Shown piece by piece: positions 31,902 to 47,366 of a DNA stretch of 64,000 bases. The notes under the pieces were generated by a model, which saw only the letters and a list, made by a program, of their open reading frames with translations, was not told where the DNA came from and did no database searches. Each line of letters begins with the position of its first letter. The first letter of the stretch is position 1. The stretch is from an uncultured bacterium. Lineage in GTDB: Bacteria; Pseudomonadota; Alphaproteobacteria; UBA8366; JADFVY01. The stretch is taken from the NCBI GenBank assembly GCA_965603635.1, contig CBFDDT010000003.1, positions 6,978 to 70,977 of the forward strand, written 5' to 3'. Both the position numbers and the translations under genes were made by a program.

Positions 31902-31912
31902 CCGCTCCTCCG

Positions 31913-32674
31913 TTACTCCGCGGCCGCCTGGCCTGATGCCACCTCCACGCTGTCGACCAGTTCGGCGCCTCGCGACGCCATGAAATAGAGGCCCAGATAA
32001 TGTGTCGCTTCTTGCGGGTGGGCGACTGTTTCCGACAGCCCCAAACCCGTGGCGACATCGCGCGGCAGATCGTAGGTCGAACAGCCCGCCGCATAGACCG
32101 AAATGTCCTTCAATGTCGGCATCATATCGTGATTGCGGGCCGACAACGTGGTGAGGACAAAATCCATGACGCAGATGTCGGTGCAAATTCCGACGACAAG
32201 CAGCCGGGTAAGCCCGTTACCGTTTACCCAGTCCACAACGCTGTTGCCGCCGTCCGGGCGTATCGCCCCGACGAAACCATTGATGCAGTCCTTGCGCACC
32301 AGTGTCGCCGCCTGCTCGTCTTCCAGCCATTTCAGTTCGGGCACCAGTTCCTCTTCGCCGGTGCCCTTCTCGCAATGAGGCGGATAGGGCGGCTCCGGCT
32401 TGCCGGGATCATGGGTGTCGAGGAAGGCCAGGATCGGCCAGCCCCGTGCCTGATATTCCCGGGCCAGCCGGTTCGTTTCATCGATCATCCGGGTCACCTG
32501 CGGGTTATCGACCGGCGGCGCCAGATTGCCGCATCCGACCGATGCAAAGCCGTTTACCTCGTCGACGATGACCAGTCCGGTACCGCTCCCGGTAATGTGA
32601 AGTCCGTTTATGGCGAGCGGCATGGCCTCTCGCAACATGCCGCTCAGCGTTGATTCCACGGGGTTTGAATTCAT
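31913..32674 (-). CDS. Isochorismatase-family cysteine hydrolase
   Basis: It has the D...K...C triad context (VIVDEVNGF, VVGICTDICV). Confidence 0.85.
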   Translation of the reverse strand: MNSNPVESTLSGMLREAMPLAINGLHITGSGTGLVIVDEVNGFASVGCGNLAPPVDNPQVTRMIDETNRLAREYQARGWPILAFLDTHDPGKPEPPYPPHCEKGTGEEELVPELKWLEDEQAATLVRKDCINGFVGAIRPDGGNSVVDWVNGNGLTRLLVVGICTDICVMDFVLTTLSARNHDMMPTLKDISVYAAGCSTYDLPRDVATGLGLSETVAHPQEATHYLGLYFMASRGAELVDSVEVASGQAAAE

Positions 32675-32739
32675 TCCTGCCTCTACTGTTTGCCTTAATT
32701 TAGCTTAAATTTTATAATAATTGTAATATTAATATATAT

Positions 32740-32775
32740 TTAACGTTATGTTAACGTTTGATGTTTGGTTATAAT
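32740..32775 (+). promoter_or_regulatory. Two TTAACGTT direct repeats spaced 11 bp apart, overlapping a candidate promoter (TATAAT at 32770-32775)
   Basis: TTAACGTT occurs at 32740-32747 and again at 32751-32758. They lie inside a roughly 120-bp AT-rich island between divergent genes. Confidence 0.4.
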
Positions 32776-32822
32776 ACACCATCGGGGAAAATTTGGATCA
32801 GAGGTTCTTTGGGGAGAAATCG

Positions 32823-33476
32823 ATGATAATGGGTGTGATAGATCGCCAATGGCTGCAGGGAATTGTTACGGGATTCGCTTTTGCGATTCTGGCGGCAATG
32901 CTGGCGCCATCGGCTAACGCGGCCGCGCCTGGGGAGGAGGCGGAAGCGTTTATGAATGACTTGGCGGTAACCGGGATCGCCCTGCTGGAAAAGGGCGATT
33001 ACACGAAGAGTGAGCGCGAACTGAAATTCCGCGAAATCGTCAGCAAGGGTTTCGCCCTGAAGGCTATCGGAAAATTCGTGGTCGGCCGCTACTGGCGCAA
33101 GATGGACTCGGTGCAGCAGGATGAATATCAGGAACTATTCTCCGAATGGCTGCTTAAGACCTATGCGAACCGCTTGGGCGGTTACCGCGGGCAGACGGTG
33201 GAAATCGTCAAGAGCATTGAGACTGCCTCCCGACATAAGGACGTCATCGTTACGACTCGGATAAACTTGGCGAACGGGCAGCCACCGATCAACATCGATT
33301 GGCGCGTGCGAAAATTTGGCGACGAATACAAGATCATCGACTTAGCCTTTGAAGGCGCAAGCATGATCGGCACACAGCGCAAGGAATTCGAATCGATCAT
33401 ACGGAAGGTGGGCGTTACCGGCCTGATAGACAGTCTGCGCGAGCGTCTCTCCGTGCTTCTGGCGGACACCGGCTGA
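32823..33476 (+). CDS. MlaC/Ttg2D-family phospholipid-binding periplasmic protein
   Basis: FREIVSKGFALKAIGKFVVGRYWRKM...EYQELFSEWLLKTYANRL. It has a signal peptide. The start is ATG 32823 after GGGGAG; TTG 32793 is an alternative. Confidence 0.8.
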   Translation: MIMGVIDRQWLQGIVTGFAFAILAAMLAPSANAAAPGEEAEAFMNDLAVTGIALLEKGDYTKSERELKFREIVSKGFALKAIGKFVVGRYWRKMDSVQQDEYQELFSEWLLKTYANRLGGYRGQTVEIVKSIETASRHKDVIVTTRINLANGQPPINIDWRVRKFGDEYKIIDLAFEGASMIGTQRKEFESIIRKVGVTGLIDSLRERLSVLLADTG

Positions 33477-33539
33477 GATTCATAAATTTAATAGTCTCCT
33501 GAATGGAATTGGGCTGCCCTTAGGTGGCCCGATTTCTTT

Positions 33540-34844
33540 TCAGTTGCCGCGCTCGGGATCGGTTATGTGTTTCAGATAGGCGATCAGTTCGGCGCGGTCC
33601 CGCGGTTCGTTCATGCGTTGCAGCGGCATCTTGGAACCCGGGGTGAACAGGTCGGGACCCTCGGCAAATAGCCTGTCTATATTTTCTTCTGTCCATATTA
33701 TGTCCGTGCCGACCAGCGCATCGGAATAGGGATACCCTTCGACGGTTCCGGCCGGGCGGCCGAATACACCGTATAAAGTCGGTCCCGCCTTGTCGGCGCC
33801 ATCAATTTCCGTAGTGTGGCAGGCCCGGCATTTACGAAACAGGCGGGCGCCCCGACTGCCGTCTTCCTCGTGCCCGGCGCCGGCGGTTTCCGTCAATTCG
33901 CCACCTAGCGGAATGCCGTATTCAACGTCCCAGATACGAACGATCCCGTCGGCGCCGGCCGACAGCAACAATCTGCCGTCTGGTGTAAAGGAAAGAGACC
34001 AGACCGGACCTTCATGACCTTCCATGGCATGGACGATTTTACCGCTGGCGAGGTGCCAGATCCTGACAGCCTTGTCGATACCGCCAGACGCAACCAGTTT
34101 TCCATTCGCGGAAATCGCGATCCCTATTATGGGGCCCGCATGGCCATACCAAATGGCCAGTTCCCGCCCGGTTTCCAGGTCCCACAAGCGGACGGTTTCG
34201 TCCACGCTGCCCGAGATCGCCTGGCGGCCGTCCGGCGTGAAGACGACGCTGTTTACGGCAAAGTCGTGGCCGGTTACCGTCAACAGCAATGCGCCGTCGG
34301 CGACGTTCCACAGATGCATGCTGGAATCATGCGCGCCCGAAAGCAACTTCTTGCCGTCCGGCGAGAACGCCACCGCATTGAAATTAGTATCGCGGCCTTC
34401 AAGTATACTCAGCGTTTCGCCCGACTCGATATCCCAGATCCGGATACTGCGATCCCAGGCCGCCGTGGCAGCGAGTTGGCCGTCCGGCGATACCGTCACG
34501 GCCGCTATCTTTCCCCTGTGCCCTGAGTATTTCCGGAGGACGGTTCCATCATCCAGTGACCAGAGAATCATCATTCCGTCGTCTGCGCCGGAAACAGCGC
34601 GGGCGCCGTCAGGCAGGAAGGCGACGCTGTTAACGCCGCCCTCATGGCCGTTGAACCGACCCGCCCTGCCGCTGTCCGGCAGGTTCCAGTGCATAACGGA
34701 ATAATCGAAGCTGGCGGTTAGCGCATGCCGGCCGTCCGGGGATATGGCGACGTCCTTGACGAAGCCGCCATGCCCCACGAGGTCGGCGCGCGCCACCGCC
34801 GACACGAACAGAACGGCCAGCGCGCTTGCTGTCCAGAACTTCAC
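33540..34844 (-). CDS. Secreted 7-blade WD40 beta-propeller fused to a C-terminal class I cytochrome c domain
   Basis: The signal peptide is VKFWTASALAVLFVSAVARA. Seven GH...W(D/N/S/H) repeats are present. The C-terminus reads FRKCRACH...GPTLYGVFGR...GSKMP...IAYLK. GTG start at 34844 after GGAGAG. Confidence 0.85.
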   Translation of the reverse strand: MKFWTASALAVLFVSAVARADLVGHGGFVKDVAISPDGRHALTASFDYSVMHWNLPDSGRAGRFNGHEGGVNSVAFLPDGARAVSGADDGMMILWSLDDGTVLRKYSGHRGKIAAVTVSPDGQLAATAAWDRSIRIWDIESGETLSILEGRDTNFNAVAFSPDGKKLLSGAHDSSMHLWNVADGALLLTVTGHDFAVNSVVFTPDGRQAISGSVDETVRLWDLETGRELAIWYGHAGPIIGIAISANGKLVASGGIDKAVRIWHLASGKIVHAMEGHEGPVWSLSFTPDGRLLLSAGADGIVRIWDVEYGIPLGGELTETAGAGHEEDGSRGARLFRKCRACHTTEIDGADKAGPTLYGVFGRPAGTVEGYPYSDALVGTDIIWTEENIDRLFAEGPDLFTPGSKMPLQRMNEPRDRAELIAYLKHITDPERGN

Positions 34845-34935
34845 GACCAGTACCCTCTCCTGTCCCGGTTCATGGTTCGGGAAACGGCGCGGCACGAAGG
34901 ACCACCTTTCAGGCAGCCCTTCGCGCCTTGCCCAA

Positions 34936-36102
34936 TCAGGCGGTCTGCGGTTTGGCGTCCCCGGCCACGGCCGTGGAACCGCCATCACCATCGTGATCCG
35001 GCGGCGGCGCCTCGCCTTTGACCTCGGCGACCCAAAGCCCATGATGTTCACGGGCCCAGTTCTCATCGACCATGCCGCTACCCATGGCGTCCCATGCACC
35101 TTCCATGCCCACTGATCCAATATAGATATGAGAGATGATGATGGCGATCATCACCGCGGCCATGACGGCATGCCAGAGAAGTGAAAGCTGCAGCTCCTCG
35201 ATCCCCGTAAGCGCGGTCGGGAGGTTCAGTCCAAAGACATTCAATAACGAGAAGGTCGGCCCAAACACGCTGAACGTGGAGGGGAACATCATCGACAATC
35301 CAGAAACGCTAAGCGTAACGCCCCCCAAAACAACGGACCAGAAAATGAATTTCTGACCGGCATTGAATTTTTTTGCGGGCGGGTGAACGTCCTTGGTAAA
35401 CAGCCCGCCGCCGACGGCAAGCCATTTCAGGTCGATACCCCGTGGGATATTATCCTTTACCCACAGCACGAAGATCAGCACGATCCCCGCCATAAAGGCG
35501 AAGGCGACGTAATGGTGAAGCAGTTTTCCATAGTAGGCGGTAAAGGCAAAAATTTGGTGCAACGCCCCGAATTCGCCAGGCGTCTCGCCCGCCTTGCCGA
35601 AAAGATAGCGGCCGTACATGACATTCAGTCCGGTTAACCCCAGCACGATGAAGCTGCCCGCGGTCAGCCAATGACCGATAAGTTCGATGCGGCTGAAACG
35701 TTCTATCAGCCTGCCGCTGAGCCCCGAGTCGATGCGTATGCGACCGCGCAGACCAAAGAAAAATCCCAGAATGACAAGCATGCCAACAATCATCCAGCCG
35801 CCGAAACTGGCAACGGGCCCATTGCGAGCATTACGCCAGTTCTCGCCCTCTGACTGGATCATCACCCCGGCCTTTTTGTCCGGGATCGAGACCGTGAATT
35901 GCTCTCCCTGGCGCACGGAGCGCCAAAACTCTGCGTCACTGTTCGCGCCAAGCGACTCGCCCGGCACCTCACCGGCTTGTTGCGCCATCGCCATGCCGGA
36001 GAAACCCGGCAGTTCGATCGTCGCCACGCCGAAGCCGGCCGCAAGCGTCAGCACGACCATAAATCGTGCAACATAACTGAAAGATTTGATTATTTTAGAC
36101 AT
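34936..36102 (-). CDS. Formate dehydrogenase gamma subunit (cytochrome b) with an N-terminal periplasmic extension
   Basis: The FdnI-type 4-TM core has conserved His residues (IGHWLTAG, LLHHYVAF, NAGQKFIFW, SHIYIG). The start is ATG 36102 after GGAGAG. Confidence 0.85.
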   Translation of the reverse strand: MSKIIKSFSYVARFMVVLTLAAGFGVATIELPGFSGMAMAQQAGEVPGESLGANSDAEFWRSVRQGEQFTVSIPDKKAGVMIQSEGENWRNARNGPVASFGGWMIVGMLVILGFFFGLRGRIRIDSGLSGRLIERFSRIELIGHWLTAGSFIVLGLTGLNVMYGRYLFGKAGETPGEFGALHQIFAFTAYYGKLLHHYVAFAFMAGIVLIFVLWVKDNIPRGIDLKWLAVGGGLFTKDVHPPAKKFNAGQKFIFWSVVLGGVTLSVSGLSMMFPSTFSVFGPTFSLLNVFGLNLPTALTGIEELQLSLLWHAVMAAVMIAIIISHIYIGSVGMEGAWDAMGSGMVDENWAREHHGLWVAEVKGEAPPPDHDGDGGSTAVAGDAKPQTA

Positions 36103-36136
36103 TCGCCCTCTCCGAAGAAATGGGTTTGCCGGATCG

Positions 36137-36337
36137 TTACCGTTGGCCATTGGCCCGATAACGAAGTTCGGTTAATTGCTCGTCCGTCAGGTTCTGGTCC
36201 GGCTTACCCATATAGGTCCCCTTTTCGAACTCCAGCGTTCTGTTCTGTTCTTCCTTGCGGCAACCACTGATCGCCAGTCCGGCCACCAACAGGCAGCCCA
36301 GCAACAGTGGCAAACGCGCTCTGCTCATTCCGTTCAT
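36137..36337 (-). CDS. 66-aa lipoprotein, hypothetical
   Basis: The lipobox is LLGCLLVAGLAISGC, after MNGMSRARLP. It sits between the FDH beta and gamma genes. Confidence 0.5.
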   Translation of the reverse strand: MNGMSRARLPLLLGCLLVAGLAISGCRKEEQNRTLEFEKGTYMGKPDQNLTDEQLTELRYRANGQR

Positions 36338-36407
36338 GGCCTCATATACCCTTTCATTCTCATGCTCTTCCGGCGCGGCGGTAACATACAGCTTTTTGTC
36401 GTCAATC

Positions 36408-36459
36408 TTCCCTGAAAATAAGAACAGGGGAGGCGCGGCCCGAAAGCCCCGCCCCCCCC
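36408..36459 (-). terminator. GC-rich hairpin plus T-rich tail between fdh beta and the lipoprotein/gamma genes (possible attenuator)
   Basis: The arms ggggaggcg (36427-36435) and cgccccccc (36450-36458) pair at 8 of 9 positions. On the minus strand the stem is followed by tgttcttattttc. A C8/G8 homopolymer lies at 36452-36459. Confidence 0.4.
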
Positions 36460-36491
36460 GGGTTATCTTGCAACAAGATCCTGTATCCGGC

Positions 36492-37088
36492 TCAGCTTCC
36501 CGATTTAAGCTGATAAGCCGTTCCCCAGCCCCAGGCGCCCGAGCCGAAGCCACGCGCTACAACGCGTTCGCGATAGATGTCGGATACGACATTGCCATCG
36601 CCGGCGAGTAGCGCCTTGGTCGAGCACATTTCCGCGCAAAGCGGGAGCTTGCCCTCGGCCAGACGGTTACGGCCATATTTCTGGAACTCAGCGTCGGACA
36701 TATCTTCTTCCGGGCCACCATTGCAGAAGGTGCATTTATCCATCTTGCCGCGGCTGCCAAAATTACCGGCGCTTGGATATTGGGGCGCGCCAAACGGGCA
36801 GGCGTAGAAGCAATAACCGCAACCGATGCACAGATCCTTGGAATGCAGAACCACGCCTTCCTCGGTTGAGTAGATGCAGTCGACCGGACACACCGCAATA
36901 CACGGTGCGTCCGAACAATGCATGCAAGCCACCGAAATCGAGCGTTCACCCGGTTTGCCGTCATTGATAGTAACGACCCGCCGGCGGTTTACACCCCACG
37001 GAACTTCGTTTTCGTTCTTACATGCAGTAACACAGGCGTTGCACTCGACACAGCGCTCGGCGTCACAAAGGAATTTCATGCGTGCCAT
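36492..37088 (-). CDS. Formate dehydrogenase iron-sulfur (beta) subunit, 4x[4Fe-4S] ferredoxin type, no membrane anchor
   Basis: The cysteine clusters are CVECNACVTAC, CMHCSDAPC, CIGCGYCFYAC and CTFC; 198 aa. Confidence 0.9.
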   Translation of the reverse strand: MARMKFLCDAERCVECNACVTACKNENEVPWGVNRRRVVTINDGKPGERSISVACMHCSDAPCIAVCPVDCIYSTEEGVVLHSKDLCIGCGYCFYACPFGAPQYPSAGNFGSRGKMDKCTFCNGGPEEDMSDAEFQKYGRNRLAEGKLPLCAEMCSTKALLAGDGNVVSDIYRERVVARGFGSGAWGWGTAYQLKSGS

Positions 37089-37101: not shown

Positions 37102-39969
37102 TCACGCTTTCTCGATGTTGCACAGGGTGACCTTCGACTCCTGCATGTGGGTTACCACATCATAGCCGTAAGTGCCGCAGGTGTTCGATGACTCGCCAAC
37201 AACGTACGGCACGGTGCCGTCCGGATATTTGTGGCTAAAGTCCTCGCCCTGGAAATGCCCGCCGAAATGGAACGGCATAAAGGCAACGCCTTGTCCGACA
37301 CGTTCGGTGATCATCGCCTTGACCTTGACCTTGGTGTTCTCCGGGCTGTGGACCCAGATATCGTCACCCTCGCGAATGCCGAGATTGTTGGCGTCGATCG
37401 TGTTGATTTCGCAGAACATGTCCTGCTGCAACTCGGCCAGCCAGGGGTTCGACCGGGACTCGTCGCCGCCGCCCTCATATTCGACCAGACGGCCGGAAGT
37501 GAGGATGATCGGATGCGACTGCGAGAAGTCCTGATCCTGGATCGTCTTGTACATGGTCGGCAAGCGGTACTTCTTGCGATCCTCGTAGGTCGGATAATCG
37601 GCCACGAGATCACGCCGCGGCGTGTAGAGCGGTTCGCGATGCAGCGGAACCGGATCCGGGAAAGTCCAGACCACCGCCCTTGCCTTCGCATTACCGAAGG
37701 GTGCACAGCCATGCTTGATGGCGACCCGCTGGATACCGCCGGAAAGGTCGGTCTTCCAGTTGGTCTTGTCGCCGGCAACCTTGTCGATAGAGGCCTGTTC
37801 TTCGGCCGTCAGGTCGCCTTCCCAACCAAGCTTCTTGAGCACGCCCATGTTGAACTCGGGATAACCGTCCTCGATCTCCGAGCCGACCGAATAGGAGCCT
37901 TCGGCAAGCAGGTTGTCGCCCTCCCGTTCCACGCCGAAGCGTGCACGGAAGTTGAGACCGCCCTCGGCCACGGACTTGGAGGTGTCATAAAGGATAGGCG
38001 TGCCCGGATGTTTCATCTCCGGCGTTCCCCAGCACGGCCAGGGAAGGCCGTAATATTCACCGTCGACCGGCCCGCCAATCGCCTGCAGCGTGGTCTTGTC
38101 GAAGGTGTGCTGGTTTTCCATGTGAAGTTTCAGGCGCTCCGGCGACTGGCCGGTATAACCGATGGTCCACATGCCGCTATTGAACTCACGGGTCGTGTCC
38201 TCGATCGAAGGCTCGTTATTCTCGACCTTGATGTTTTTGAACATCTCGTCGGCGAAACCGAGCTTCTGGGCCAGGAGATACAGAATCTCATGGTCGGTCT
38301 TGGAATTCCACACCGGATCGACGACCGTTTCGCGCCACTGCAGTGAACGGTTGGACGCGGTGACCGAGCCGTAAGTCTCGAACTGCGTCGCCGCCGGCAA
38401 CAGATAGACGCCGTCCTTGCGATCATGCAGCACGGCGGAGACCGTCGGATAGGGGTCGATCACGACCATCAAATCCAGTTTCTCCATCGCCACCTTCATT
38501 TCCGCGAGGCGGGTTTGCGAGTTCGGTGCATGGCCATCGAACACCATGGCGCGGACATTGTCCGGCTGATCCATGTTCGCCTTGTCTTCCAGCACGCCGT
38601 CGATCCAGCGCGATACCGGAATGCCAGCCGATTCCATCAATTTCTGGTCGGCGAACCGGCCCAGCAGATAGTCGTAATCGACATCCCAGACACGGGCCCA
38701 ATGCTTCCAGGATCCGGTCTTCAGACCGTAATATCCCGGCAGCGAATGGCTGAGCACGCAGAAGTCCGTGGCGCCCTGCACATTGTCATGGCCGCGGAAG
38801 ATGTTGGCGCCGCCGCCGGCGGTACCCATGTTGCCCAAGGCCAACTGCAGTACGCAGTAGGCGCGGGTGTTGCTGCTACCCGTGGTGTGCTGGGTGCCAC
38901 CCATGCACCAGACGATGGTACCCGGGCGGTTATTGGCCAGCGTCCGCGCGACGCGCTTCATCTGCGAGCCGGGAACGCCGGTGACCCGCTCGGTCTCTTC
39001 CGGGGTCCACTTCGCGACCTCGGCCTTGATCTGATCCATGCCCCAGACGCGGCGGCGGATGAATTCCTTGTCCTCCCAGCCGTTCTCGAACACATGCCAC
39101 AGAATGCCCCAGATCAGCGCGACGTCCGTGCCAGGACGGAACCGGACATATTCGTCGGCATGAGCCGCCGTGCGTGTAAAGCGCGGATCGCAAACGATCA
39201 GCGGCGCGTTATTCTGCTCCTTGGCCTTGAGGATATGCTGCATCGCAACCGGATGCGCCTCGGACGGGTTGGAGCCAATCAGGAACATCGCACGGGAATT
39301 GTGGATGTCGTTGAAGCTGTTGGTCATCGCACCATAGCCCCAGGTGTTCGCAACACCAGCGACCGTGGTCGAATGACAGATACGGGCCTGATGGTCACCG
39401 TTGTTCGAGCCCCAGAAGGCATAGAACTTGCGGAACAGATAAGCCTGCTCGTTGTTATGCTTCGCCGAGCCGAGCCAGTAGACCGAATCCGGCCCCGACT
39501 CTTCGCGGATCTTCAGCATTTTGTCGCCGATCTCGTTGATGGCGTCTTCCCAACTGACCGCCTTGTACTTGCCGTCAATCAGCTTCATTGGTGTCCGCAG
39601 TCGCTTTTCGCCGATCTGATGTTCGCGAACCGAGGCGCCCTTGGCGCAATGCGAACCGAGATTAAAGGGGCTGTCAAAACCGGGTTCCTGCCCGATCCAG
39701 ACGCCTTTCTGGACTTCGGCGACGACCGTGCAGCCCACGGAACAATGGGTGCAAACGGACTTCTTGATTTCGATATCGGCGCCACCGGCCGCGGCTTCGG
39801 CCTTCTTGACCATGCCGCCGCTCAGCAGGCTGCCGGCCGCGATGCCGCCAGCCGCCAGGCCCGAATTACGCAGGAAGGTACGGCGATCGACCGCCCCGCC
39901 CGTCACGCCGGCCAGGGCCCGCGAGATGTTGGTGCTCCGTGCGAGCCCCTTTGATTTTTTTCTAAGCAT
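37102..39969 (-). CDS. Formate dehydrogenase alpha subunit (Mo/W-bis-PGD), Tat-exported, cysteine-type
   Basis: The twin-arginine signal is VDRRTFLRNSG. The N-terminal FeS motif is CTHCSVGC. The active-site block ARICHSTTVAG aligns to ARVUHGPTVA of E. coli FdnG, with the Cys codon TGT at 39376-39378. Confidence 0.95.
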   Translation of the reverse strand: MLRKKSKGLARSTNISRALAGVTGGAVDRRTFLRNSGLAAGGIAAGSLLSGGMVKKAEAAAGGADIEIKKSVCTHCSVGCTVVAEVQKGVWIGQEPGFDSPFNLGSHCAKGASVREHQIGEKRLRTPMKLIDGKYKAVSWEDAINEIGDKMLKIREESGPDSVYWLGSAKHNNEQAYLFRKFYAFWGSNNGDHQARICHSTTVAGVANTWGYGAMTNSFNDIHNSRAMFLIGSNPSEAHPVAMQHILKAKEQNNAPLIVCDPRFTRTAAHADEYVRFRPGTDVALIWGILWHVFENGWEDKEFIRRRVWGMDQIKAEVAKWTPEETERVTGVPGSQMKRVARTLANNRPGTIVWCMGGTQHTTGSSNTRAYCVLQLALGNMGTAGGGANIFRGHDNVQGATDFCVLSHSLPGYYGLKTGSWKHWARVWDVDYDYLLGRFADQKLMESAGIPVSRWIDGVLEDKANMDQPDNVRAMVFDGHAPNSQTRLAEMKVAMEKLDLMVVIDPYPTVSAVLHDRKDGVYLLPAATQFETYGSVTASNRSLQWRETVVDPVWNSKTDHEILYLLAQKLGFADEMFKNIKVENNEPSIEDTTREFNSGMWTIGYTGQSPERLKLHMENQHTFDKTTLQAIGGPVDGEYYGLPWPCWGTPEMKHPGTPILYDTSKSVAEGGLNFRARFGVEREGDNLLAEGSYSVGSEIEDGYPEFNMGVLKKLGWEGDLTAEEQASIDKVAGDKTNWKTDLSGGIQRVAIKHGCAPFGNAKARAVVWTFPDPVPLHREPLYTPRRDLVADYPTYEDRKKYRLPTMYKTIQDQDFSQSHPIILTSGRLVEYEGGGDESRSNPWLAELQQDMFCEINTIDANNLGIREGDDIWVHSPENTKVKVKAMITERVGQGVAFMPFHFGGHFQGEDFSHKYPDGTVPYVVGESSNTCGTYGYDVVTHMQESKVTLCNIEKA

Positions 39970-40007: not shown

Positions 40008-40205
40008 TTAGAATTTCGCAAGGTCGTAATAGGTGCGAACATGCTCCGTTTCACGATAACCGGAGCTCTTGGTGTTTATTTCTGCCGCCGCCTCGGCCTT
40101 GCTGGCCGACGTGGCAATTGCCGCGGCGCCCACAACGCCGCCCAGACCTGCAATCTTCAGAAGATCGCGGCGTGCGACCTGCTGTTTTTCTTTTTTCGTT
40201 TCCAT
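40008..40205 (-). CDS. Formate-dehydrogenase-region TAT target small protein
   Basis: This 65-aa protein has the Tat signal ARRDLLKIAG and the C-terminal motif YRETEHVRTYY, which matches Y-[HRK]-x-[TS]-x-H-[IV]-x-x-[YF]-Y. Confidence 0.85.
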   Translation of the reverse strand: METKKEKQQVARRDLLKIAGLGGVVGAAAIATSASKAEAAAEINTKSSGYRETEHVRTYYDLAKF

Positions 40206-40268: not shown

Positions 40269-40925
40269 TCAGGCCGCCATCTCAAACGCCGTAGACTCGA
40301 TTACCATGAAAATACGGCCAATCGCGCCCACGGGCGCATAAAAATCCGTTGCCTTCGCCACTTCAAGATCGGCAAAAAACTGCCCCGCCCACGGACCTAT
40401 ATGGGCGTCGAAAAAGGCGCGCTGCGCCCCAATGTCCGCGGGATCGCCAAACGCGCCCTCGATCAGCCCGGCCATCATTTCGCACAGGGCGGCAATGTGG
40501 TCCTCGGGTTCCTTGACGTCTTCGGCGCGCGCGATTCCCAGGCGGTCCATATCGACGCGCAGCCTGGCCAGAGGTTTTTCGTATACAAACCCGGTGAGGT
40601 AATAGGAGCAGTAGGGCATAAGCTCGCCACGCCCGACGCCGATAAACAAGTCATGAAATTCGTCGTCGACGCGGGCAGGATCCGCCGCCGCGGCCGTCCG
40701 GCCCAGCGTGCTCAGCGCCTGGCCCAGTTCGCTCGCATCGCCAGTAATTTCGGCGATCCGGCCCAGCGCTTCCCGGTCCGGTATTCGAGCGAGCAGGCCC
40801 GCAAGCAGCCGGTATAGCTGCGCGCGCTGACTGTCTTCTTCTGTGATCGTGGACGCAGAAGATGCGCCCTTGGGTTTATCGCTCACGGCGACTTTTGCCC
40901 CATATTGTTTCCTCCCGAAGTGCAT
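40269..40925 (-). CDS. TorD/DmsD-family redox enzyme maturation chaperone
   Basis: YRLLAGLL..., DEFHDLFIGVG..., EDHIAALCEMMAGL. The start is uncertain (ATG 40925, GTG 40886 or ATG 40979). Confidence 0.8.
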   Translation of the reverse strand: MHFGRKQYGAKVAVSDKPKGASSASTITEEDSQRAQLYRLLAGLLARIPDREALGRIAEITGDASELGQALSTLGRTAAAADPARVDDEFHDLFIGVGRGELMPYCSYYLTGFVYEKPLARLRVDMDRLGIARAEDVKEPEDHIAALCEMMAGLIEGAFGDPADIGAQRAFFDAHIGPWAGQFFADLEVAKATDFYAPVGAIGRIFMVIESTAFEMAA

Positions 40926-41101: not shown

Positions 41102-41662
41102 TTAACCGAGGTCTTCGTCATCTTCATCCGGGATATCACCGGCACCATCGTCGATTGTCGGGTGCACGTCCGGGATACCTTTCTCGTCGGACTCGCCGTC
41201 GGCGCTTTCCTCACTGCCCACGGGCTCCTCCGGGTCCAACGCTGCTTCCTGTTTTTCTTTCTTGGGATAACCCTTGCCGACCTCCCAGGCGCTTTTCATG
41301 CCCTTGATCACCGTCGCGGCGTCCGTGTAGTCCTCGCCATATTCTTCCATGCCATCGATAACGTTGAAGACCGGGTCGCTGGACCACAGCTTGCGCAGGG
41401 CTTGGCGGCGGAGCGCCTTGGGCACGCCTTGCTTCATGAAGGCCGTGAAGTCGGAGTCAGCGGTCAGCGATTCGATATCCGGCAAATCCGGCGGCGGCGT
41501 CTCATCCGCTGGCGCATCCTGTCCGGTTTCGTCGGGCTGTGCCGCATCCACGGGCAGGTCGGCATTTTCCTCGCGCAGTTCCGGCGCCGCGCCGCCGCGG
41601 CCGTCGCGCACTTCCGCCTTGCGCCGCGACCAGCGGCTTAGCCTGCTTTCGTCAGAGGTCAT
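41102..41662 (-). CDS. DUF3306-like protein
   Basis: The N-terminus is LSRWSRRKAEV, followed by an acidic low-complexity region and a conserved C-terminal half. The ATG at 41662 overlaps the upstream gene by 11 nt. The family name is from memory. Confidence 0.7.
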   Translation of the reverse strand: MTSDESRLSRWSRRKAEVRDGRGGAAPELREENADLPVDAAQPDETGQDAPADETPPPDLPDIESLTADSDFTAFMKQGVPKALRRQALRKLWSSDPVFNVIDGMEEYGEDYTDAATVIKGMKSAWEVGKGYPKKEKQEAALDPEEPVGSEESADGESDEKGIPDVHPTIDDGAGDIPDEDDEDLG

Positions 41663-42203
41663 GGCCGTCGCTCCATCCCGAACCGCGACCGTATCTGGGC
41701 TTGTCGCCCGAATCCTCGTCGAAATGCCGGCGCTGTTTGCGTTTCTTGAATGGCTCATCCACATGATGAAATTCAATAAAATCGCGCAGCCAGGCGACCA
41801 TGCCGTCAGGCATCGGCACTGCCTCTACGACATCCTCGCCGTCGAGATAATCCTGCGCCTCGAACGACGACACCGTGGCGACGAAGGGCTTCAGTTCATG
41901 TTCGCCCTCAAGATCCTCGCGCAGAACCACATAGACCGACGGCGGATCGCCGGTCAGGCAATCCAGGTAGGCCTGGGTATCGGTGCGGAACACCTCGATC
42001 TCCAGCGTGCCCGCGTGATAATGCTCCCAGTCCTCGCCTTCTTTCAATTTTTTCCAGGGACCATCGGGGTCCATCGGCGCCGCGCCCGGTATCACCGCGA
42101 CCGGCAGCCATATGTTATCCGCCCAGGGGTGACTGCTGTCGCGGCGTTCAACGACAATGCCCACGGGCATGGTTTCAATCCGGTTTTTGATTTCTTCGCC
42201 CAA
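41652..42203 (-). CDS. DUF3305-like protein
   Basis: PVGIVVERRDSSHPWADNIWLPVAVIPGA... The start is TTG 42203 after AAGGGG, or ATG 42170. The family name is from memory. Confidence 0.7.
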   Translation of the reverse strand: MGEEIKNRIETMPVGIVVERRDSSHPWADNIWLPVAVIPGAAPMDPDGPWKKLKEGEDWEHYHAGTLEIEVFRTDTQAYLDCLTGDPPSVYVVLREDLEGEHELKPFVATVSSFEAQDYLDGEDVVEAVPMPDGMVAWLRDFIEFHHVDEPFKKRKQRRHFDEDSGDKPRYGRGSGWSDGHDL

Positions 42204-42349
42204 AGCGCGCCCCTTGAAATTTCCGTTCAGGCACAGACTTTAGTCCCGCGCGCCGACAAGGCAAGCGTCAATATAGGCGACACCCTTGGCAGCGCGCGGC
42301 CAAACCGTTAGGGATTGCCCCCACGAAGACAAACCAACCTGGAAAACGA

Positions 42350-43366
42350 ATGACAGAACTCTGGCCCAGCTCCGGCTATCGGCTTCTTCAAACTGACGCG
42401 CAAGGGCGTCTGGCGGTGACCGACGATTTTCTGCGCGCCTATCTGACGCGGCCCGAAATTGCGCCGGTCGAGGAATCGCTGGATGCCGAACGCGAACTGC
42501 ATGCGGAATTGCTGGTCGATCCTCGCATGACGGTGGAGCCGGTCAGGCTGGCCGCGCTTGGCGATGCGGACGCGGCGGAAAATTACCAGGTCGTGTTGTC
42601 TTTTCGCGATCGCCTGGTCGCGGCCGGCACGATCGAGGCCTGTTATCGTGGGCTTTTCGACGGCAATCCGCCCGCCATACCCGTGCCGCCGCTGTTCGTG
42701 GATCAACTTGCCCATGTAATCATGCGCAATATTCTGGACGGCAATGACGACCCGTTCCGCGCCCGCGCCGGCGAATTGTTCTTCCGCAAGCAGACCGGCA
42801 TGAATCAGGACGGCGCGATCCTGCTGGGCGACGATGAGACCGTCGATATGTACCGCCAGCACGGATTCGGCAATATCGGCAAGCTGCTGGCCGAAGCGGG
42901 AACGCCGACCCGCCAGGTGGAACTGGATGTGCTGAACGCGGAAAATGCCGGGCAATTCTGGGATCGCAGCGACCGTTTCGACATGGTGCTGGACCTGACC
43001 TTCGGCCGCGAGGGGTTGGACGCGCTGTGCCGGGTGCTGGAGCAATGGGTCGGCCATTTTTTCGATCTGAAAGTTTCCGTGCAACCGGCACAAAGCGTAA
43101 AGGACGAACACTGGGTCTGGCATATCGGGCTGGATGCAATGGCCAGCGGAATATTGAATGACCTTTATAACGGCGTCGATGTCGAGGAAGAACGGCTGGC
43201 CCGTCTGATATCCCTGTTCCGGCTGGAATTCGCCGATCCCCGGGCCTCCCTGCCACGCGTGGCTGGCCGGCCAATCTATCTGGCGCTGGCCATGGCGGAG
43301 GACAATTCGGTGCGGCTGAAGCCGCAGAATCTACTGGTCAATCTGCCGGTGGCGGAAATCGTTTAA
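42350..43366 (+). CDS. Conserved hypothetical protein (338 aa)
   Basis: A long ORF with good coding character. I recognise no catalytic motif. It is the first gene of a three-gene plus-strand unit. Confidence 0.7.
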   Translation: MTELWPSSGYRLLQTDAQGRLAVTDDFLRAYLTRPEIAPVEESLDAERELHAELLVDPRMTVEPVRLAALGDADAAENYQVVLSFRDRLVAAGTIEACYRGLFDGNPPAIPVPPLFVDQLAHVIMRNILDGNDDPFRARAGELFFRKQTGMNQDGAILLGDDETVDMYRQHGFGNIGKLLAEAGTPTRQVELDVLNAENAGQFWDRSDRFDMVLDLTFGREGLDALCRVLEQWVGHFFDLKVSVQPAQSVKDEHWVWHIGLDAMASGILNDLYNGVDVEEERLARLISLFRLEFADPRASLPRVAGRPIYLALAMAEDNSVRLKPQNLLVNLPVAEIV

Positions 43367-43386
43367 AGAAAATGGAGAAGAAGAGC

Positions 43387-43593
43387 ATGAACGAAGACGC
43401 ATTTAATATGAGCATCCGCAAGTTCCTGAAGAAGGTCGGCGTGACCTCGCAGCGCGAGATCGAGCATGCGGTGCACGAAGCGCTCGCCGACGGCAAAATC
43501 ACCGGCGACACGACCCTGAAGGCCAAGGTGGTGCTGACCGTCGACGGCATCGACCTGTCGGCGACCATCGAAAGCGACATCGAACTGGAATGA
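43387..43593 (+). CDS. Small conserved hypothetical protein (68 aa)
   Basis: MNEDAFNMSIRKFLKKVGVTSQREIEHAV... A GGAGAAG RBS precedes ATG 43387; ATG 43372 is an alternative. Confidence 0.6.
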   Translation: MNEDAFNMSIRKFLKKVGVTSQREIEHAVHEALADGKITGDTTLKAKVVLTVDGIDLSATIESDIELE

Positions 43594-43892
43594 CCGGCGA
43601 GGATAGAACATCGCCGCTGGACCACCCCGCCGCGCGCCTTGCCGCGGTGACGATTGCACTGGCCGGTTTGGCCTTCCTGGGCTGGATGCACCGCAACGAT
43701 TTGTTCCCGCCGGAACCCGGCGCGGCCCCGGGCGACCCCAGAGAGGCCGCCTTCCAGGCCTGCTTCGCACCCCAGGCCGCGCGCATCGCGAAGGACGCGG
43801 AAAGCGGCCAGATCAGCGCCGAGCAGGCCACCCTGTTCCGCGGCCGCGCCGAAGCCTTCTGCGCCGACAAGGCGGCGAAGGGCAGGCAATAG
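43590..43892 (+). CDS. Small membrane-anchored hypothetical protein (100 aa)
   Basis: It has an ATGA overlap with the upstream gene and one TM helix (LAAVTIALAGLAFLGWM). Confidence 0.5.
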   Translation: MTGEDRTSPLDHPAARLAAVTIALAGLAFLGWMHRNDLFPPEPGAAPGDPREAAFQACFAPQAARIAKDAESGQISAEQATLFRGRAEAFCADKAAKGRQ

Positions 43893-43895
43893 CCG

Positions 43896-45971
43896 TCAGC
43901 CCTCGCCCTCTTCCTTCGCCCGTTCGGCCAGCACCCGCGCCCTCTCCTTTACGATCTCTTCCTCGCGTTCGCGCAGATCGTCGTCGGTGGTCCGGGGTTT
44001 GGGGCGGTCGGCGCCCTTGAAGGGGTCGTCCTTGGCATCGAACTGGTCGATAACCCGGCAGTCGTCGCACATCTTGATGCGCTCGGCCATCGGGCCGTCG
44101 GCGAACATCGGGTTCTTGCCGGCCAGCTTTTCGAAAATATGCTCGATCGAGCTCTTGGTGCCGAAGGGCTTGCCGCAACGCACGCATTCGAAGGGTTCTT
44201 CCTCCTTCAGGACGACGGCGCGGCGGGAGTCGGCGGTAAAGGCCAGGCGTGGCTCCAGCTTGATCACCGATTCCGGACAGGTGCTGCGGCACAGCCCGCA
44301 TTGCACGCAGGCCTGTTCGTCGAACGAGAGTTGCGGTTTGTCTGGATTGTCGCGCAGCGCACCCGTGGGGCAGGCGCCGATGCAGGACAGGCACAGCGTA
44401 CAGCCGGCGTCGTCCACCACCAACCGACCGAAGGGCGCGCCGTCGGGTAGCGGCACGATATCGGCGGGCGTCGGCGCGACCTCGTGCAAATGAGCCAGCG
44501 CCAGCCCGATCACCGCGCGCTTGCCACCCGCCGCCAGGAACGAGCCAGGCTTTGCCGACGCGGGGCTCTTCGTGTCCCACAGCAGGCGCTCCACGGCGTC
44601 CGGGTCGGCCTCGGCGATTACCGACACCCGGCCGCCGCCATAACCCAGACCGTCCGTCACCGCCTCGGCAAGGCCGATCTGCTGGGCCAGCCCGGCCAGT
44701 TCATCGCGGCGGTCCGGCCCCACCAGGATACGCAGGGCCGACGCCCCCCATCCCAGCGCGCAGGAGATCAGGTCAAAGCCCGCCATGGTGACCTCATGCA
44801 CCGCAAAGGGCAGCACATTGGCCGGCAGCCCGCGCCCGAACCGCGCCATGGCGTCGATCACATCCGCGCCGTGGCCCTCGTCATGCAGCAACAGCACGGC
44901 ATCCTTGCCGCCCGCCGCGTGGTAGGTGGTCAGCATCGTGCGCAGGCGGCCCAGCAGCGCGTCGGCCGGGGGCATGTCGTAGCGCGCGGCGCCCGTCGGG
45001 CAGACGCTGTTACAGCCGCCGCAGCCGCCACAGACATAATTGTCGATCTCCACATGGTCGCCGGCCGGGGTAATGGCCGAGACCGGGCAGACATCGATGC
45101 AGCGGGTGCAGCCGATTTTCATGCTGCGCGAATGGGCGCAAAGATCGGGCGTGAAATTCACATAGCGCGGTTTCTCGAACTCGCCCACCATATCGGCCAG
45201 CTCGAACAGCGCCTTCTGTACTGCGGCCGGGTTCCCGGGGTCGGGGCGCAGATAGCCGTCGATGCGCTCACCGGCGGGGAACAGGGGTGCGCCGCCGGTA
45301 AGGTCCAGGATCAGGTGGCATTTGGACACCGCCCCGTTGCGGGGATTCTCAAAGGAGAGAGTTCCACGCGACGACACGCTGGCCGGCGCGTAATCGTCGA
45401 CGCCGATCTCGAAGGCGCCCATATGGCCCTTCGCCATTCTGACCGTTCCCCGAAAAACGGGAACGTCCATAATTCGCGGCGGCATGATATCGCCGGGGCG
45501 GTCCAGCAGCAGGGTGACGTCCAGCCGCCCGGCAAGCTGTTGCGCGGCCTCCAGCGCGACCTCGTCGCGGCCATAGACCAGGCAGACACCATCGGATGCC
45601 AGGGTAACCGTCGGGGTCGGCGGAATGTCCAGGGCGGCCTCGGCCAGCAGGGCGGCAATTTTCGCCGTCGCCTTCGCGCCATTCTCGGACCAGCCGGCAC
45701 GCTCGCGGATATTCACATGGCCCAGCGCAGCCGCGCCCTCGCCCACTTCCCCGGCGACCTCGTCGAACAGCGGCGCTTCCTGGGTGCAGGCGACCAGCGC
45801 CTGGCCGCCCTTGGCGATTTCGCCCCGGAAATTGTCGATCTGCGCGCGGCAGAGCTGGCTGGCGATCTCGGGCGCGCCATCGGCGCCGCAAGCCTTGGCC
45901 AGCGCCTTGCCGTCCAGCGCCATGCTGTGCTCGCAATCGCAGAGCAATATCCGTCTGCCGTTGATTTCCAT
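43896..45971 (-). CDS. Large polyferredoxin-like 4Fe-4S protein (691 aa)
   Basis: It has several CxxCxxCxxxCP clusters (CTRCIDVCP, CGGCGGCNSVCP, CTLCLSCIGACP, CVQCGLCRSTCP). The start is ATG 45971 after GGGAGAGG. Confidence 0.85.
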   Translation of the reverse strand: MEINGRRILLCDCEHSMALDGKALAKACGADGAPEIASQLCRAQIDNFRGEIAKGGQALVACTQEAPLFDEVAGEVGEGAAALGHVNIRERAGWSENGAKATAKIAALLAEAALDIPPTPTVTLASDGVCLVYGRDEVALEAAQQLAGRLDVTLLLDRPGDIMPPRIMDVPVFRGTVRMAKGHMGAFEIGVDDYAPASVSSRGTLSFENPRNGAVSKCHLILDLTGGAPLFPAGERIDGYLRPDPGNPAAVQKALFELADMVGEFEKPRYVNFTPDLCAHSRSMKIGCTRCIDVCPVSAITPAGDHVEIDNYVCGGCGGCNSVCPTGAARYDMPPADALLGRLRTMLTTYHAAGGKDAVLLLHDEGHGADVIDAMARFGRGLPANVLPFAVHEVTMAGFDLISCALGWGASALRILVGPDRRDELAGLAQQIGLAEAVTDGLGYGGGRVSVIAEADPDAVERLLWDTKSPASAKPGSFLAAGGKRAVIGLALAHLHEVAPTPADIVPLPDGAPFGRLVVDDAGCTLCLSCIGACPTGALRDNPDKPQLSFDEQACVQCGLCRSTCPESVIKLEPRLAFTADSRRAVVLKEEEPFECVRCGKPFGTKSSIEHIFEKLAGKNPMFADGPMAERIKMCDDCRVIDQFDAKDDPFKGADRPKPRTTDDDLREREEEIVKERARVLAERAKEEGEG

Positions 45972-46565: not shown

Positions 46566-46820
46566 CTAAGTATTATGCGTTCGGCGACGTCCGCCGCGGC
46601 GTCCCGGGGACACAGTGGGCGCCCCGTCAACGGGAGCGATAGCCTCGACATCGGCCAGATCGGTCCGACCAGTGACACAAACCGGGCAGACGCAGCCCAT
46701 GGCGCCGGTGCGCAGGATCATTTCCTCGTAATCGAATTTACGCTCGACTTTCAGGCACCAGCATTCCTCGCCGCCATCGCAGTTGAAACCCCGGCCGCAA
46801 TTTGGGCATTTGCCACGCAT
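46566..46820 (-). CDS. Cysteine-rich CWC family protein
   Basis: CPNCGRGFNCDGGEECWCLKV...CVCPVC. Confidence 0.75.
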   Translation of the reverse strand: MRGKCPNCGRGFNCDGGEECWCLKVERKFDYEEMILRTGAMGCVCPVCVTGRTDLADVEAIAPVDGAPTVSPGRRGGRRRTHNT

Positions 46821-46838: not shown

Positions 46839-47366
46839 TCAGACGTCGGCTTCGATCTTGAAGCGTTCCTTCACCACGTCGGTGAAAAGGTGGTTGACGA
46901 GAATGCCCCGCACCGCCGCATCTTCAGGCACCACTTCGGAATCGAGGCTGCCGTCGGCGAACATCCCGAGCGCCTGTTCGCGGGCCTTCAGGACGACGGG
47001 GTCGAGCGCGGCCATGGTGACGCCGGAGATGAAACGCACCAGCTTGTCGGCCATTTTCATGGCATCCAGGTAAACCAGGCTTCCCGAATTCTGCAATTCA
47101 CCAACCCGGTCCTTCATCGCGTCGGCGCCCTTGCCGGACATCTCGCCCAGCGCCTCAAAAGTGGCGTCGGCCGCTGCCAATTGTTCCAGTTCGTCGCCAT
47201 GCCGGGCCTCGGTGAGCATTACCGTGCTGCACATCAGGAAACCCAAAACGTAATCGTCGTCCCAGAACCCATCAGGCAGGGGCAGCGCCTTCAGCCGGTC
47301 ATCCACGAATATAGAGATAACCCGCTCGGCGGTATCCTTCGGGCCAGTCGTGAGGTTTTCAATCAT
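46839..47366 (-). CDS. Hypothetical protein (175 aa)
   Basis: The ORF has good coding character and is the first gene of a minus-strand small-gene unit. I recognise no family. Confidence 0.6.
   Translation of the reverse strand: MIENLTTGPKDTAERVISIFVDDRLKALPLPDGFWDDDYVLGFLMCSTVMLTEARHGDELEQLAAADATFEALGEMSGKGADAMKDRVGELQNSGSLVYLDAMKMADKLVRFISGVTMAALDPVVLKAREQALGMFADGSLDSEVVPEDAAVRGILVNHLFTDVVKERFKIEADV

Follow-up and report, generated by a model that had tools for sequence, protein, structure and literature searches.

A three-gene unit facing the polyferredoxin gene as a supported, facultative part of the FDH3 formate dehydrogenase accessory gene set

This study concerns a 64,000-nucleotide stretch of DNA from an uncultured alphaproteobacterium (assembly GCA_965603635.1, contig CBFDDT010000003.1, positions 6,978 to 70,977), which is called the window below. 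It carries, on the minus strand, the gene cluster of a periplasmic formate dehydrogenase (FDH) of the FDH3 type, a type named after Fdh3 of Methylobacterium/Methylorubrum extorquens. The enzyme is assigned to this type because its beta subunit exceeds the NF038355 equivalog cut-off (Table 1). Three plus-strand genes lie between the DUF3305 gene of this cluster and the gene of a large polyferredoxin. They encode a DUF6352 protein, a DUF6494 protein and a 100-aa protein with one transmembrane (TM) helix, and are called the trio. A preliminary description of the region had offered two readings of them, namely a further part of the same system or an insertion that uncoupled the polyferredoxin from its partners. 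The analysis supports the first: the trio appears to belong to the FDH3 accessory gene set and not to be an insertion, and its linkage to FDH3 is real but facultative. A functional tie between the trio and the FDH3 system is considered quite likely. The fuller statement, in which the trio is a conserved, facultative part of the accessory set with a role in enzyme maturation, is held with moderate confidence.

Recurrence of the trio beside FDH3 clusters

I scanned a DUF6352 alignment against one genome per species, which gave 80 loci, each with flanks of up to 10 kb. These were searched by tblastn and hidden Markov models (HMMs) with the proteins of the window and with BPL-like and DUF6505 proteins from relatives. 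Clustering of six-frame open reading frames (ORFs) was swamped by high-GC shadow ORFs; it served only to name neighbours, which were then checked against Pfam. FDH3-cluster genes were found within 10 kb in 20 of the 80 loci, and five more had only the usual operon partners (BPL, DUF6505, DUF6494, TM) without FDH3 genes. It was found that DUF6352 and DUF6494, often with the TM protein, recur beside FDH3 clusters in Rhodospirillales, Hyphomicrobiales and other Alphaproteobacteria, and that the linked loci show at least four different gene orders. The arrangement of the three genes is more than chance, since it recurs across many lineages. Thus, the first reading of the preliminary description, which counts the trio as belonging to the system, is supported by recurrence beside FDH3, the polyferredoxin and DUF3305/DUF3306 in several gene orders and independent lineages.

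The commonest linked order is BPL_LplA_LipB_2, DUF6505, DUF6352, DUF6494 and TM, converging on the polyferredoxin gene, which itself diverges from DUF3305, DUF3306, TorD, the Tat (twin-arginine translocation) peptide, alpha, beta and gamma (L011, L035, L044, L059, L098; loci are numbered with an L). This layout, a five-gene operon converging on a polyferredoxin that is divergent from the DUF3305-to-FDH3 genes, looks ancestral in Alphaproteobacteria. In the second order, DUF6352, DUF3305 and DUF3306 follow one another on one strand, 14-54 bp apart, with DUF6352 immediately upstream of DUF3305. This order was found in Ferrovibrio, Arenibaculum, Sinorhizobium meliloti pB, Bradyrhizobium, Methylobacterium bullatum and Microvirga, and the annotated records of this group carry the RefSeq name fdh3B for the beta gene. 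The third order is that of the window and is common to L001, L002, L072 and L093: the block of DUF6352, DUF6494 and TM with the converging polyferredoxin is inverted, so that DUF6352 faces DUF3305. The DUF6352 proteins of L001, L002 and L072 are 69-74% identical to that of the window, and L093 is a close relative with an identical arrangement.

The third order may have arisen by inversion of this block in the lineage of the window. Such an event would have brought DUF6352 to share a divergent promoter region with DUF3305, and would have left the BPL-like and DUF6505 genes no longer adjacent to DUF6352. In L093, a BPL-like gene lies just past the 5′ end of the polyferredoxin gene, where a simple inversion of the block would leave it. 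Neither a BPL-like gene nor DUF6505 was detected when the whole window was scanned with HMMs in six frames. Two genes of the window, orf175 (46839-47366) and the gene of a CWC protein (46566-46820), were considered as diverged DUF6505 or BPL-like genes and rejected, as HMM searches revealed no similarity.

Plasmid records gave a second view. Each of the ten plasmid records with DUF6352 contains DUF3305 as well, the genes adjoin each other in all seven records listing both coordinates, and full FDH3 clusters were present in all four DUF6352 plasmid regions inspected (Sinorhizobium, Bradyrhizobium, Methylobacterium, Microvirga). The polyferredoxin is a regular partner of DUF3305, since it occurs in 84 plasmid records and DUF3305 in 92, in the same genera. 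In Alphaproteobacteria it is normally transcribed separately from DUF3305/DUF3306; only in Betaproteobacteria (Variovorax L086, Ralstonia L088) does it stand in line with them, in the order DUF3305, DUF3306, polyferredoxin, TorD. On Roseobacter plasmids, a divergent operon runs from the polyferredoxin through DUF6494, Mrp/NBP35 and BPL-like to DUF6505. Eight DUF3305 loci were also sampled from genomes and metagenomes with a 10-kb range; the polyferredoxin was found in three of them and a DUF6352-DUF6494 operon in two.

Several observations weigh against a tie of the trio to FDH3. DUF6352 stands alone in 55 of the 80 loci, with no FDH3 gene or partner within 10 kb, and its neighbours there are housekeeping genes (class II ribonucleotide reductase-like, MlaD, AccBC, TadA, PurD, ABC-F). 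No gene of the trio was found within 10 kb in six of the eight sampled DUF3305 loci, nor in the 12-kb flanks of the Variovorax and Ralstonia FDH3 clusters. The Roseobacter clusters have no DUF6352 in their 12-kb flanks, and the gene is absent from all Roseobacter plasmid records. L002 and L044 lack the TM gene. DUF6494 occurs on 159 plasmid records versus 92 for DUF3305, and stand-alone paralogs lie in unrelated contexts (L091, L092). Searches of Pfam, NCBIfam and the PDB revealed no homology or fold similarity of the trio to a characterised maturation factor. Finally, three apparent fusions, two of the polyferredoxin C-terminus with DUF6352 (P0189, P0249) and one of DUF6352 with DUF3305 (P0277), have linkers or tails that look out of frame and are probably frameshifted gene calls; therefore, they attest adjacency only and give no Rosetta-stone evidence.

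These observations would suit an alternative in which DUF6352 and possibly DUF6494 have a general cytoplasmic function (redox, Fe-S or unrelated), are not dedicated to FDH3 and are simply encoded near its clusters more often in some lineages. The solo DUF6352 loci beside housekeeping genes, the spread of DUF6494 to nuo genes and elsewhere, and the many FDH3 clusters that do without DUF6352 and DUF6494 nearby all speak for it. I nevertheless regard it as unlikely. The linkage survives at least four independent rearrangements, across orders and down to 43% identity, and DUF6352 is found in the same operon as DUF3305, directly upstream of it. Chance placement within 10 kb of a single cluster in a 4-Mb genome would be expected at about 0.5%. 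In a neighbor-joining tree of DUF6352, the FDH-linked genes make up a deep grade and the solo genes fall into two derived clades, of which the first comprises Burkholderiales and the second Rhodospirillales, Kiloniellaceae and Azospirillum; the solo state is thus phylogenetically derived. Moreover, at least two genomes with a solo DUF6352 still have FDH3: in two metagenome-assembled genomes (MAGs) of Kiloniellaceae, the FDH3 cluster lies on another contig (L048/L094, L009/L099). Azospirillum likewise has a solo DUF6352 plus FDH3 elsewhere, at genus level only. The solo loci fit, on thin evidence, the dispersal of a gene that is still associated with FDH3.

The preliminary description had proposed a comparison of synteny, and named a trio and a polyferredoxin both unlinked to FDH genes in relatives as a refutation. 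The outcome is divided. The trio accompanies the cluster in a subset of lineages, and no such unlinking was seen in the FDH-linked lineages, but DUF6352 is unlinked in the 55 solo loci.

Some of the variation merits separate mention. The Burkholderiales solo DUF6352 has a different, apparently conserved operon context; in a Betaproteobacteria MAG (L074, 6568-8423), it is preceded by an ABC-F ATPase gene and shares an ATGA overlap with the SirB1/transglutaminase-TPR-like gene downstream. A link to tungstate or molybdate through this neighbouring ABC ATPase was considered and discarded, since the neighbour is ABC-F (Uup-like) and not TupC. The stand-alone DUF6494 gene of L091 (S. meliloti pB, 530.7 kb) is found beside a second nuo (NADH dehydrogenase) cluster, and that of L092 (Skermanella pTT6-2) near an oxalate/formate antiporter gene, which hints that the DUF6494 family serves Fe-S respiratory enzymes more broadly. 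The gene of an Mrp/NBP35 Fe-S carrier ATPase is located inside the FDH3 accessory operon in L083 and L084 (Roseobacter plasmids), between DUF6494 and BPL-like, and in L088 (Ralstonia), upstream of DUF3305. Mrp/NBP35 and DUF6352 may be alternatives to each other, since DUF6352 is absent from these three clusters. DUF3305/DUF3306 are not always encoded beside FDH, as the pair stands alone in L085 (Azospirillum lipoferum 4B plasmid p4), with no formate dehydrogenase gene within 12 kb.

The convergent junction and the question of an insertion

The second reading of the preliminary description took the trio for a recent insertion or rearrangement that parted the polyferredoxin from DUF3305/DUF3306, with convergent-transcription interference at the junction as its consequence. 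The junction itself is as described: the last plus-strand stop and the polyferredoxin stop are separated by 3 bp (CCG). No terminator-like site was found there in a terminator scan, and the folding energy of the junction is no different from that of shuffled sequences (z -1.4 and -1.1); a bidirectional terminator hairpin over it was rejected on these grounds. These features would suit the insertion, as would the inversion of the block relative to other Alphaproteobacteria.

However, the reading is unsupported, because the trio and the polyferredoxin form a conserved convergent block that occurs in either orientation beside DUF3305. The block was found in six loci with gaps of 1-30 bp, distant relatives included: L011 has a gap of 1 bp, L093 of 3 bp, L035 of 21 bp, L044 of 29 bp and L002 of 30 bp. 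Thus, the tight junction is a conserved feature and is not specific to the window. The inverted arrangement is also old, being common to L001, L002, L072 and L093. Nor was any scar of an insertion found in composition or repeats. The G+C content at third codon positions (GC3) is 0.72-0.86 for the trio and 0.59-0.83 for the neighbours (0.83 for the polyferredoxin), so that the trio lies almost inside the local range, and the composition profile has no step at the boundaries of the trio. A Pfam scan of 41.1-46.6 kb detected no transposase or integrase domain, and only short imperfect repeats flank the block. Finally, the alphaproteobacterial polyferredoxin is normally separate from DUF3305/DUF3306 anyway, and the statement that the trio splits the cluster was overstated, since the polyferredoxin usually has its own transcription unit. 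An insertion with transcriptional interference is accordingly given very little weight.

The polyferredoxin coding sequence reaches the junction with a charged low-complexity tail (C-terminus, 43896-44000, DDDLREREEEIVKERARVLAERAKEEGEG), which is kept in many alphaproteobacterial orthologs. At the other end of the trio, the intergenic region between DUF3305 and DUF6352 contains three blocks in the alignment of the window with L001, L002 and L072, namely CACAGACT(C/T)TAG, GCAA(G/A)GCAAG and CTTGGCAG-N13-TAGGGAT. They are candidate promoter or operator elements shared by the two divergent genes; a sigma-70 scan did not pick them out. The same region contains the palindrome TTGGCAGCGCGCGGCCAA at 42286-42303.

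The trio proteins and a proposed role in maturation

The preliminary description had stated that none of the three proteins has a recognised function. No function is known, but the first two are clear members of named families. The DUF6352 protein scores 248.3 bits on its Pfam profile (cut-off 25), with residues 3-293 aligned to profile positions 3-285 of 290, and the DUF6494 protein matches at 111.5 bits against a cut-off of 24 over the whole profile (1-68 of 68). Both are thus full-length, high-scoring members, of families that bear no functional annotation. The linkage to FDH3 and the TM gene are not captured by the family models queried.

DUF6352 is a single-domain family with more than 3000 homologs, which form 1468 clusters at 50% identity and are nearly all 330-360 aa in length. 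Many of its invariant residues are charged or aromatic, for example those of the HWVWHxGLD, RAxELFFRxQ and KPQNLLxNLP motifs, and the alignment contains no conserved Cys. The protein of the window has no signal peptide and is predicted to be cytoplasmic. Its AlphaFold2 model is confident and of mixed alpha/beta type (predicted local distance difference test score, pLDDT, 87.8; predicted template modelling score, pTM, 0.86). Neither a Foldseek search of the PDB with this model (best E 0.88) nor a profile and sequence search of the PDB found a match.

An alignment of 18 DUF6494 orthologs revealed an invariant basic N-terminal motif, FNMSxRKFLKxVGVTSQ, and a variable acidic C-terminal half; a sequence search of the PDB found no relative. 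The start at 43387 is preferred over an alternative ATG at 43372, because the Pfam match begins at the Met of 43387 and a GGAG lies 9 nucleotides upstream. This Shine-Dalgarno sequence is relevant to the claim that the three genes are translationally coupled. The claim holds for DUF6494 and the TM gene, which overlap by ATGA. In contrast, DUF6352 and DUF6494 are 20 nucleotides apart without overlap, DUF6494 has its own GGAG, and a spacing of 23-48 nucleotides between them is conserved in relatives.

The TM protein has no match in Pfam or NCBIfam. It consists of a short N-terminus that is positively charged in most orthologs, one hydrophobic helix and a helical domain of about 60 aa with two conserved Cys, from which an N-in, C-out topology with a periplasmic disulfide is predicted. 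It has 32 close homologs, divergent homologs were found at the matching position in 12 loci, and it evolves fast (29-62% identity across loci).

Most likely, the trio helps a maturation or proofreading of FDH3 in the cytoplasm that is centred on the polyferredoxin; the TM protein would act from the periplasmic side. Such a role would be analogous to that of NapF/NapD or FdhE/FdhD. Before Tat export, the alpha subunit needs one [4Fe-4S] cluster and the molybdenum or tungsten bis-pyranopterin guanine dinucleotide cofactor (Mo/W-bisPGD), and the beta subunit needs four clusters. DUF6352 and DUF6494, both predicted to be cytoplasmic, would act at this stage with the polyferredoxin, DUF3305/DUF3306 and the TorD-like chaperone, and may aid the loading or proofreading of the Fe-S clusters, of Mo/W-bisPGD, or of both, in FDH3 alpha-beta. 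The proteins of the accessory set lack signal peptides, the TM protein excepted. The latter would expose its helical domain, with the disulfide, to the periplasm, the site of assembly of the enzyme on cytochrome b.

The proposal draws on the precedents of FdhD, FdhE, FdhM and NapF, the lack of an annotated fdhE, the match of DUF3305 to a MobA fusion model, and the neighbouring genes for Mrp/NBP35, FdhD, MobA and transporters. In Escherichia coli, FdhE and FdhD are cytoplasmic non-structural proteins that serve the periplasmic formate dehydrogenases FDH-N and FDH-O and are needed before Tat export, and the TorD homologue FdhM serves the Campylobacter formate dehydrogenase (PMC10609526). The helper role before export that is suggested here for the trio and the polyferredoxin is similar, although no sequence or fold relationship between FdhE/FdhD and the trio was found. 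No fdhE was annotated in the FDH3 neighbourhoods inspected. FdhD lies near some FDH3 clusters (L081, L090, L094, L096) but not beside that of the window; it is, with Mrp/NBP35, MobA and Tup/Mod-like transporters, a frequent gene of FDH3 neighbourhoods. The DUF3305 protein matches the DUF3305 part of the NCBIfam MobA-DUF3305 fusion model NF011058, and this link to the molybdenum cofactor supports a maturation role. None of the three proteins matches the TorD/DmsD/NarJ maturation family (PF02613 or related models).

NapF offers another precedent. It is a cytoplasmic polyferredoxin that is implicated in the Fe-S loading of NapA and is facultative across species (PMC10609526). Like NapF, the polyferredoxin of the window is a predicted cytoplasmic protein with several [4Fe-4S] clusters whose gene accompanies those of a Tat-exported Mo-bisPGD enzyme, and the arrangement is facultative in both. 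However, it is four times larger than NapF and scores well under the NapF equivalog cut-off (TIGR00402, 42.5 bits against 102.2), with the similarity confined to the Fer4 motifs, and nap operons have no counterpart of the trio.

The composition of the polyferredoxin also bears on a different alternative, in which it forms with the trio a cytoplasmic electron-transfer or sensing unit. This unit might serve as a redox relay, or as a regulator tying the expression or activity of FDH3 to the redox state of the cytoplasm, with DUF6494 as a small regulator and the TM protein as a signal transducer. The polyferredoxin consists of an N-terminal CDC motif, two 2x[4Fe-4S] ferredoxin domains, a C-terminal CxxC...CxxC and the charged tail. 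Its Fer4 domains resemble most closely those of the electron-wire polyferredoxins FwdF, MvhB and HdrA, and the adjacency of DUF6494 and the polyferredoxin is conserved. DUF6494 itself is a small protein with a basic, helical N-terminus, and it occurs alone next to respiratory operons. On the other hand, the Fer4 similarity is generic, DUF6352 has neither a conserved Cys nor a known cofactor motif, Pfam and NCBIfam scans detected no DNA-binding or signalling domain, and FDH3 already has a full route to quinone via beta and cytochrome b. Such a unit is therefore thought to be rather improbable, less so than an insertion but more so than a set of general-purpose proteins.

A bolder version of the maturation reading can be put forward only tentatively. 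In it, the trio, the 690-aa polyferredoxin, the BPL-like protein, DUF6505 and DUF3305/DUF3306 would form an undescribed, dedicated machinery for FDH3 biogenesis that replaces proofreading of the FdhE type, with DUF6352 and DUF3305 having folds without a solved relative. The AlphaFold2 model of DUF3305 (pLDDT 84.5) had no fold match in a Foldseek search of the PDB (best E 0.66).

The FDH3 cluster of the window and the meaning of the trio

The features are collected in Table 1. On the minus strand, the order of transcription is DUF3305, DUF3306, the TorD/DmsD-type chaperone, the Tat peptide, alpha, beta, a 66-aa ORF, gamma and a WD40/cytochrome c protein. The ORF map and the sequence agree with the coordinates and strands that had been given for the trio, the polyferredoxin, DUF3305 and DUF3306. 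The DUF3306 ORF is open to 41776, and its start was placed by homolog lengths and the Pfam match; the polyferredoxin ORF is open to 46076, and its start at 45971 is backed by homologs. The best NCBIfam match of alpha is Fdh-alpha (TIGR01591, 461 bits), under the equivalog cut-off of 666.

Table 1. Features of the trio, its borders and the FDH3 cluster in the window
Feature	Position	Strand	Basis or remark
DUF6352-family protein, 338 aa, first gene of the plus-strand unit	42350..43366	+	Pfam PF19879, E 1.5e-73
DUF6494-family protein, 68 aa	43387..43593	+	Pfam PF20104, E 2.5e-32
100-aa bitopic membrane protein	43590..43892	+	No family; ATGA overlap with the DUF6494 stop
Convergent stop-stop junction	43890..43898		TAG 43890-43892, CCG, TCA (TGA on the minus strand, 43896-43898)
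Polyferredoxin, 691 aa, cytoplasmic	43896..45971	-	Multiple Pfam Fer4 families
Divergent intergenic region DUF3305/DUF6352, 146 bp	42204..42349		Blocks conserved in L001, L002, L072
DUF3305 protein, 183 aa	41652..42203	-	Pfam PF11749, E 1.7e-39
DUF3306 protein, ~186 aa from ATG at 41662	41102..41662	-	Pfam PF11748, E 1.3e-30
TorD/DmsD-type redox-enzyme maturation chaperone	40269..40925	-	Pfam PF02613, E 1.4e-31; start inferred
65-aa Tat-signal small protein of formate dehydrogenase regions	40008..40205	-	TIGR02811, 61.1 bits against cut-off 48.45
Formate dehydrogenase alpha (Mo/W-bisPGD), Tat signal DRRTFLRNSG	37102..39969	-	Pfam Molybdop_Fe4S4, Molybdopterin, Molydop_binding
FDH3 beta (four-cluster ferredoxin) subunit	36492..37088	-	NF038355 FDH3_beta equivalog, 340 bits against cut-off 240
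Formate dehydrogenase gamma (cytochrome b)	34936..36150	-	TIGR01583, 135 bits against cut-off 115.85; Pfam Ni_hydr_CYTB
WD40 beta-propeller with C-terminal c-type cytochrome, periplasmic	33540..34844	-	Pfam WD40; CRACH motif; Cyt c-550 domain

Two members of the cluster deserve attention besides the trio. The WD40/cytochrome c protein bears a signal peptide and is a recurrent member of FDH3 clusters, with homologs in L081, L082, L083, L024, L054, L067, L070, L078 and L080. Homologs annotated as 'c-type cytochrome' follow the gamma gene in Roseobacter; in Sinorhizobium and Bradyrhizobium they adjoin the polyferredoxin gene. The WD40/cytochrome c protein might accept electrons from FDH3 in the periplasm. 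The 66-aa ORF (36137-36337, minus strand), between beta and gamma, has no family match and contains a lipobox-like LAISGC; gene calls of 64-66 aa occupy this position in L094, L096, L099, L100 and L101. It may encode a small lipoprotein that has gone unrecognised as a subunit or assembly factor of FDH3. It was also observed that GC3 is lower (0.63-0.71) at about 30-37 kb (30261-37088), where an AMP-binding enzyme, MlaC, the WD40/cytochrome c protein and FDH3 gamma and beta are encoded, than in most other genes of the window (about 0.75-0.85).

The cluster resembles other FDH3-type clusters in its beta equivalog, alpha with a Tat signal, cytochrome b gamma, TIGR02811 peptide, TorD-like chaperone, DUF3305/DUF3306 and polyferredoxin of about 690 aa, and the RefSeq-annotated FDH3 clusters of Sinorhizobium, Bradyrhizobium, Microvirga and Roseobacter have the same gene set. 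It differs in the inverted DUF6352-DUF6494-TM unit between DUF3305 and the polyferredoxin, in the absence of BPL-like and DUF6505 genes from the 64 kb, and in having no TupABC, FdhD or MobA gene adjoining it. The window is one further instance, in an inverted and reduced layout, of an accessory module of FDH3 that is recurrent but undescribed.

Part of this association is known already. Bay et al. (2015, PMC4464133) noted DmsD/TorD-linked fdhGHI operons with upstream genes for DUF3305, DUF3306 and a fer4 protein. These operons share with the window a TorD-family chaperone, DUF3305, DUF3306 and a 4Fe-4S protein that accompany a periplasmic formate dehydrogenase, but the study makes no mention of DUF6352, DUF6494, DUF6505 or a BPL-like gene. 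RefSeq neighbours already carry labels such as 'DUF6352 family protein', and a full-text literature search turned up neither a paper naming DUF6352, DUF6494 or DUF6505 nor one on FDH3 accessory genes.

Periplasmic Mo/W formate dehydrogenases power formate respiration and are under development as catalysts of CO2 reduction, and their heterologous production is limited by maturation. The FDH3 type is widespread in Alphaproteobacteria and Betaproteobacteria; its helper set differs from FdhD/FdhE, is larger and is wholly uncharacterised. With a facultative link and a predicted function, the trio is a good lead rather than a surprise. Its placement gives a concrete hypothesis for two Pfam DUFs and points structural work to two proteins that have confident models but no PDB relatives. 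It also provides a minimal list of genes for co-expression with FDH3.

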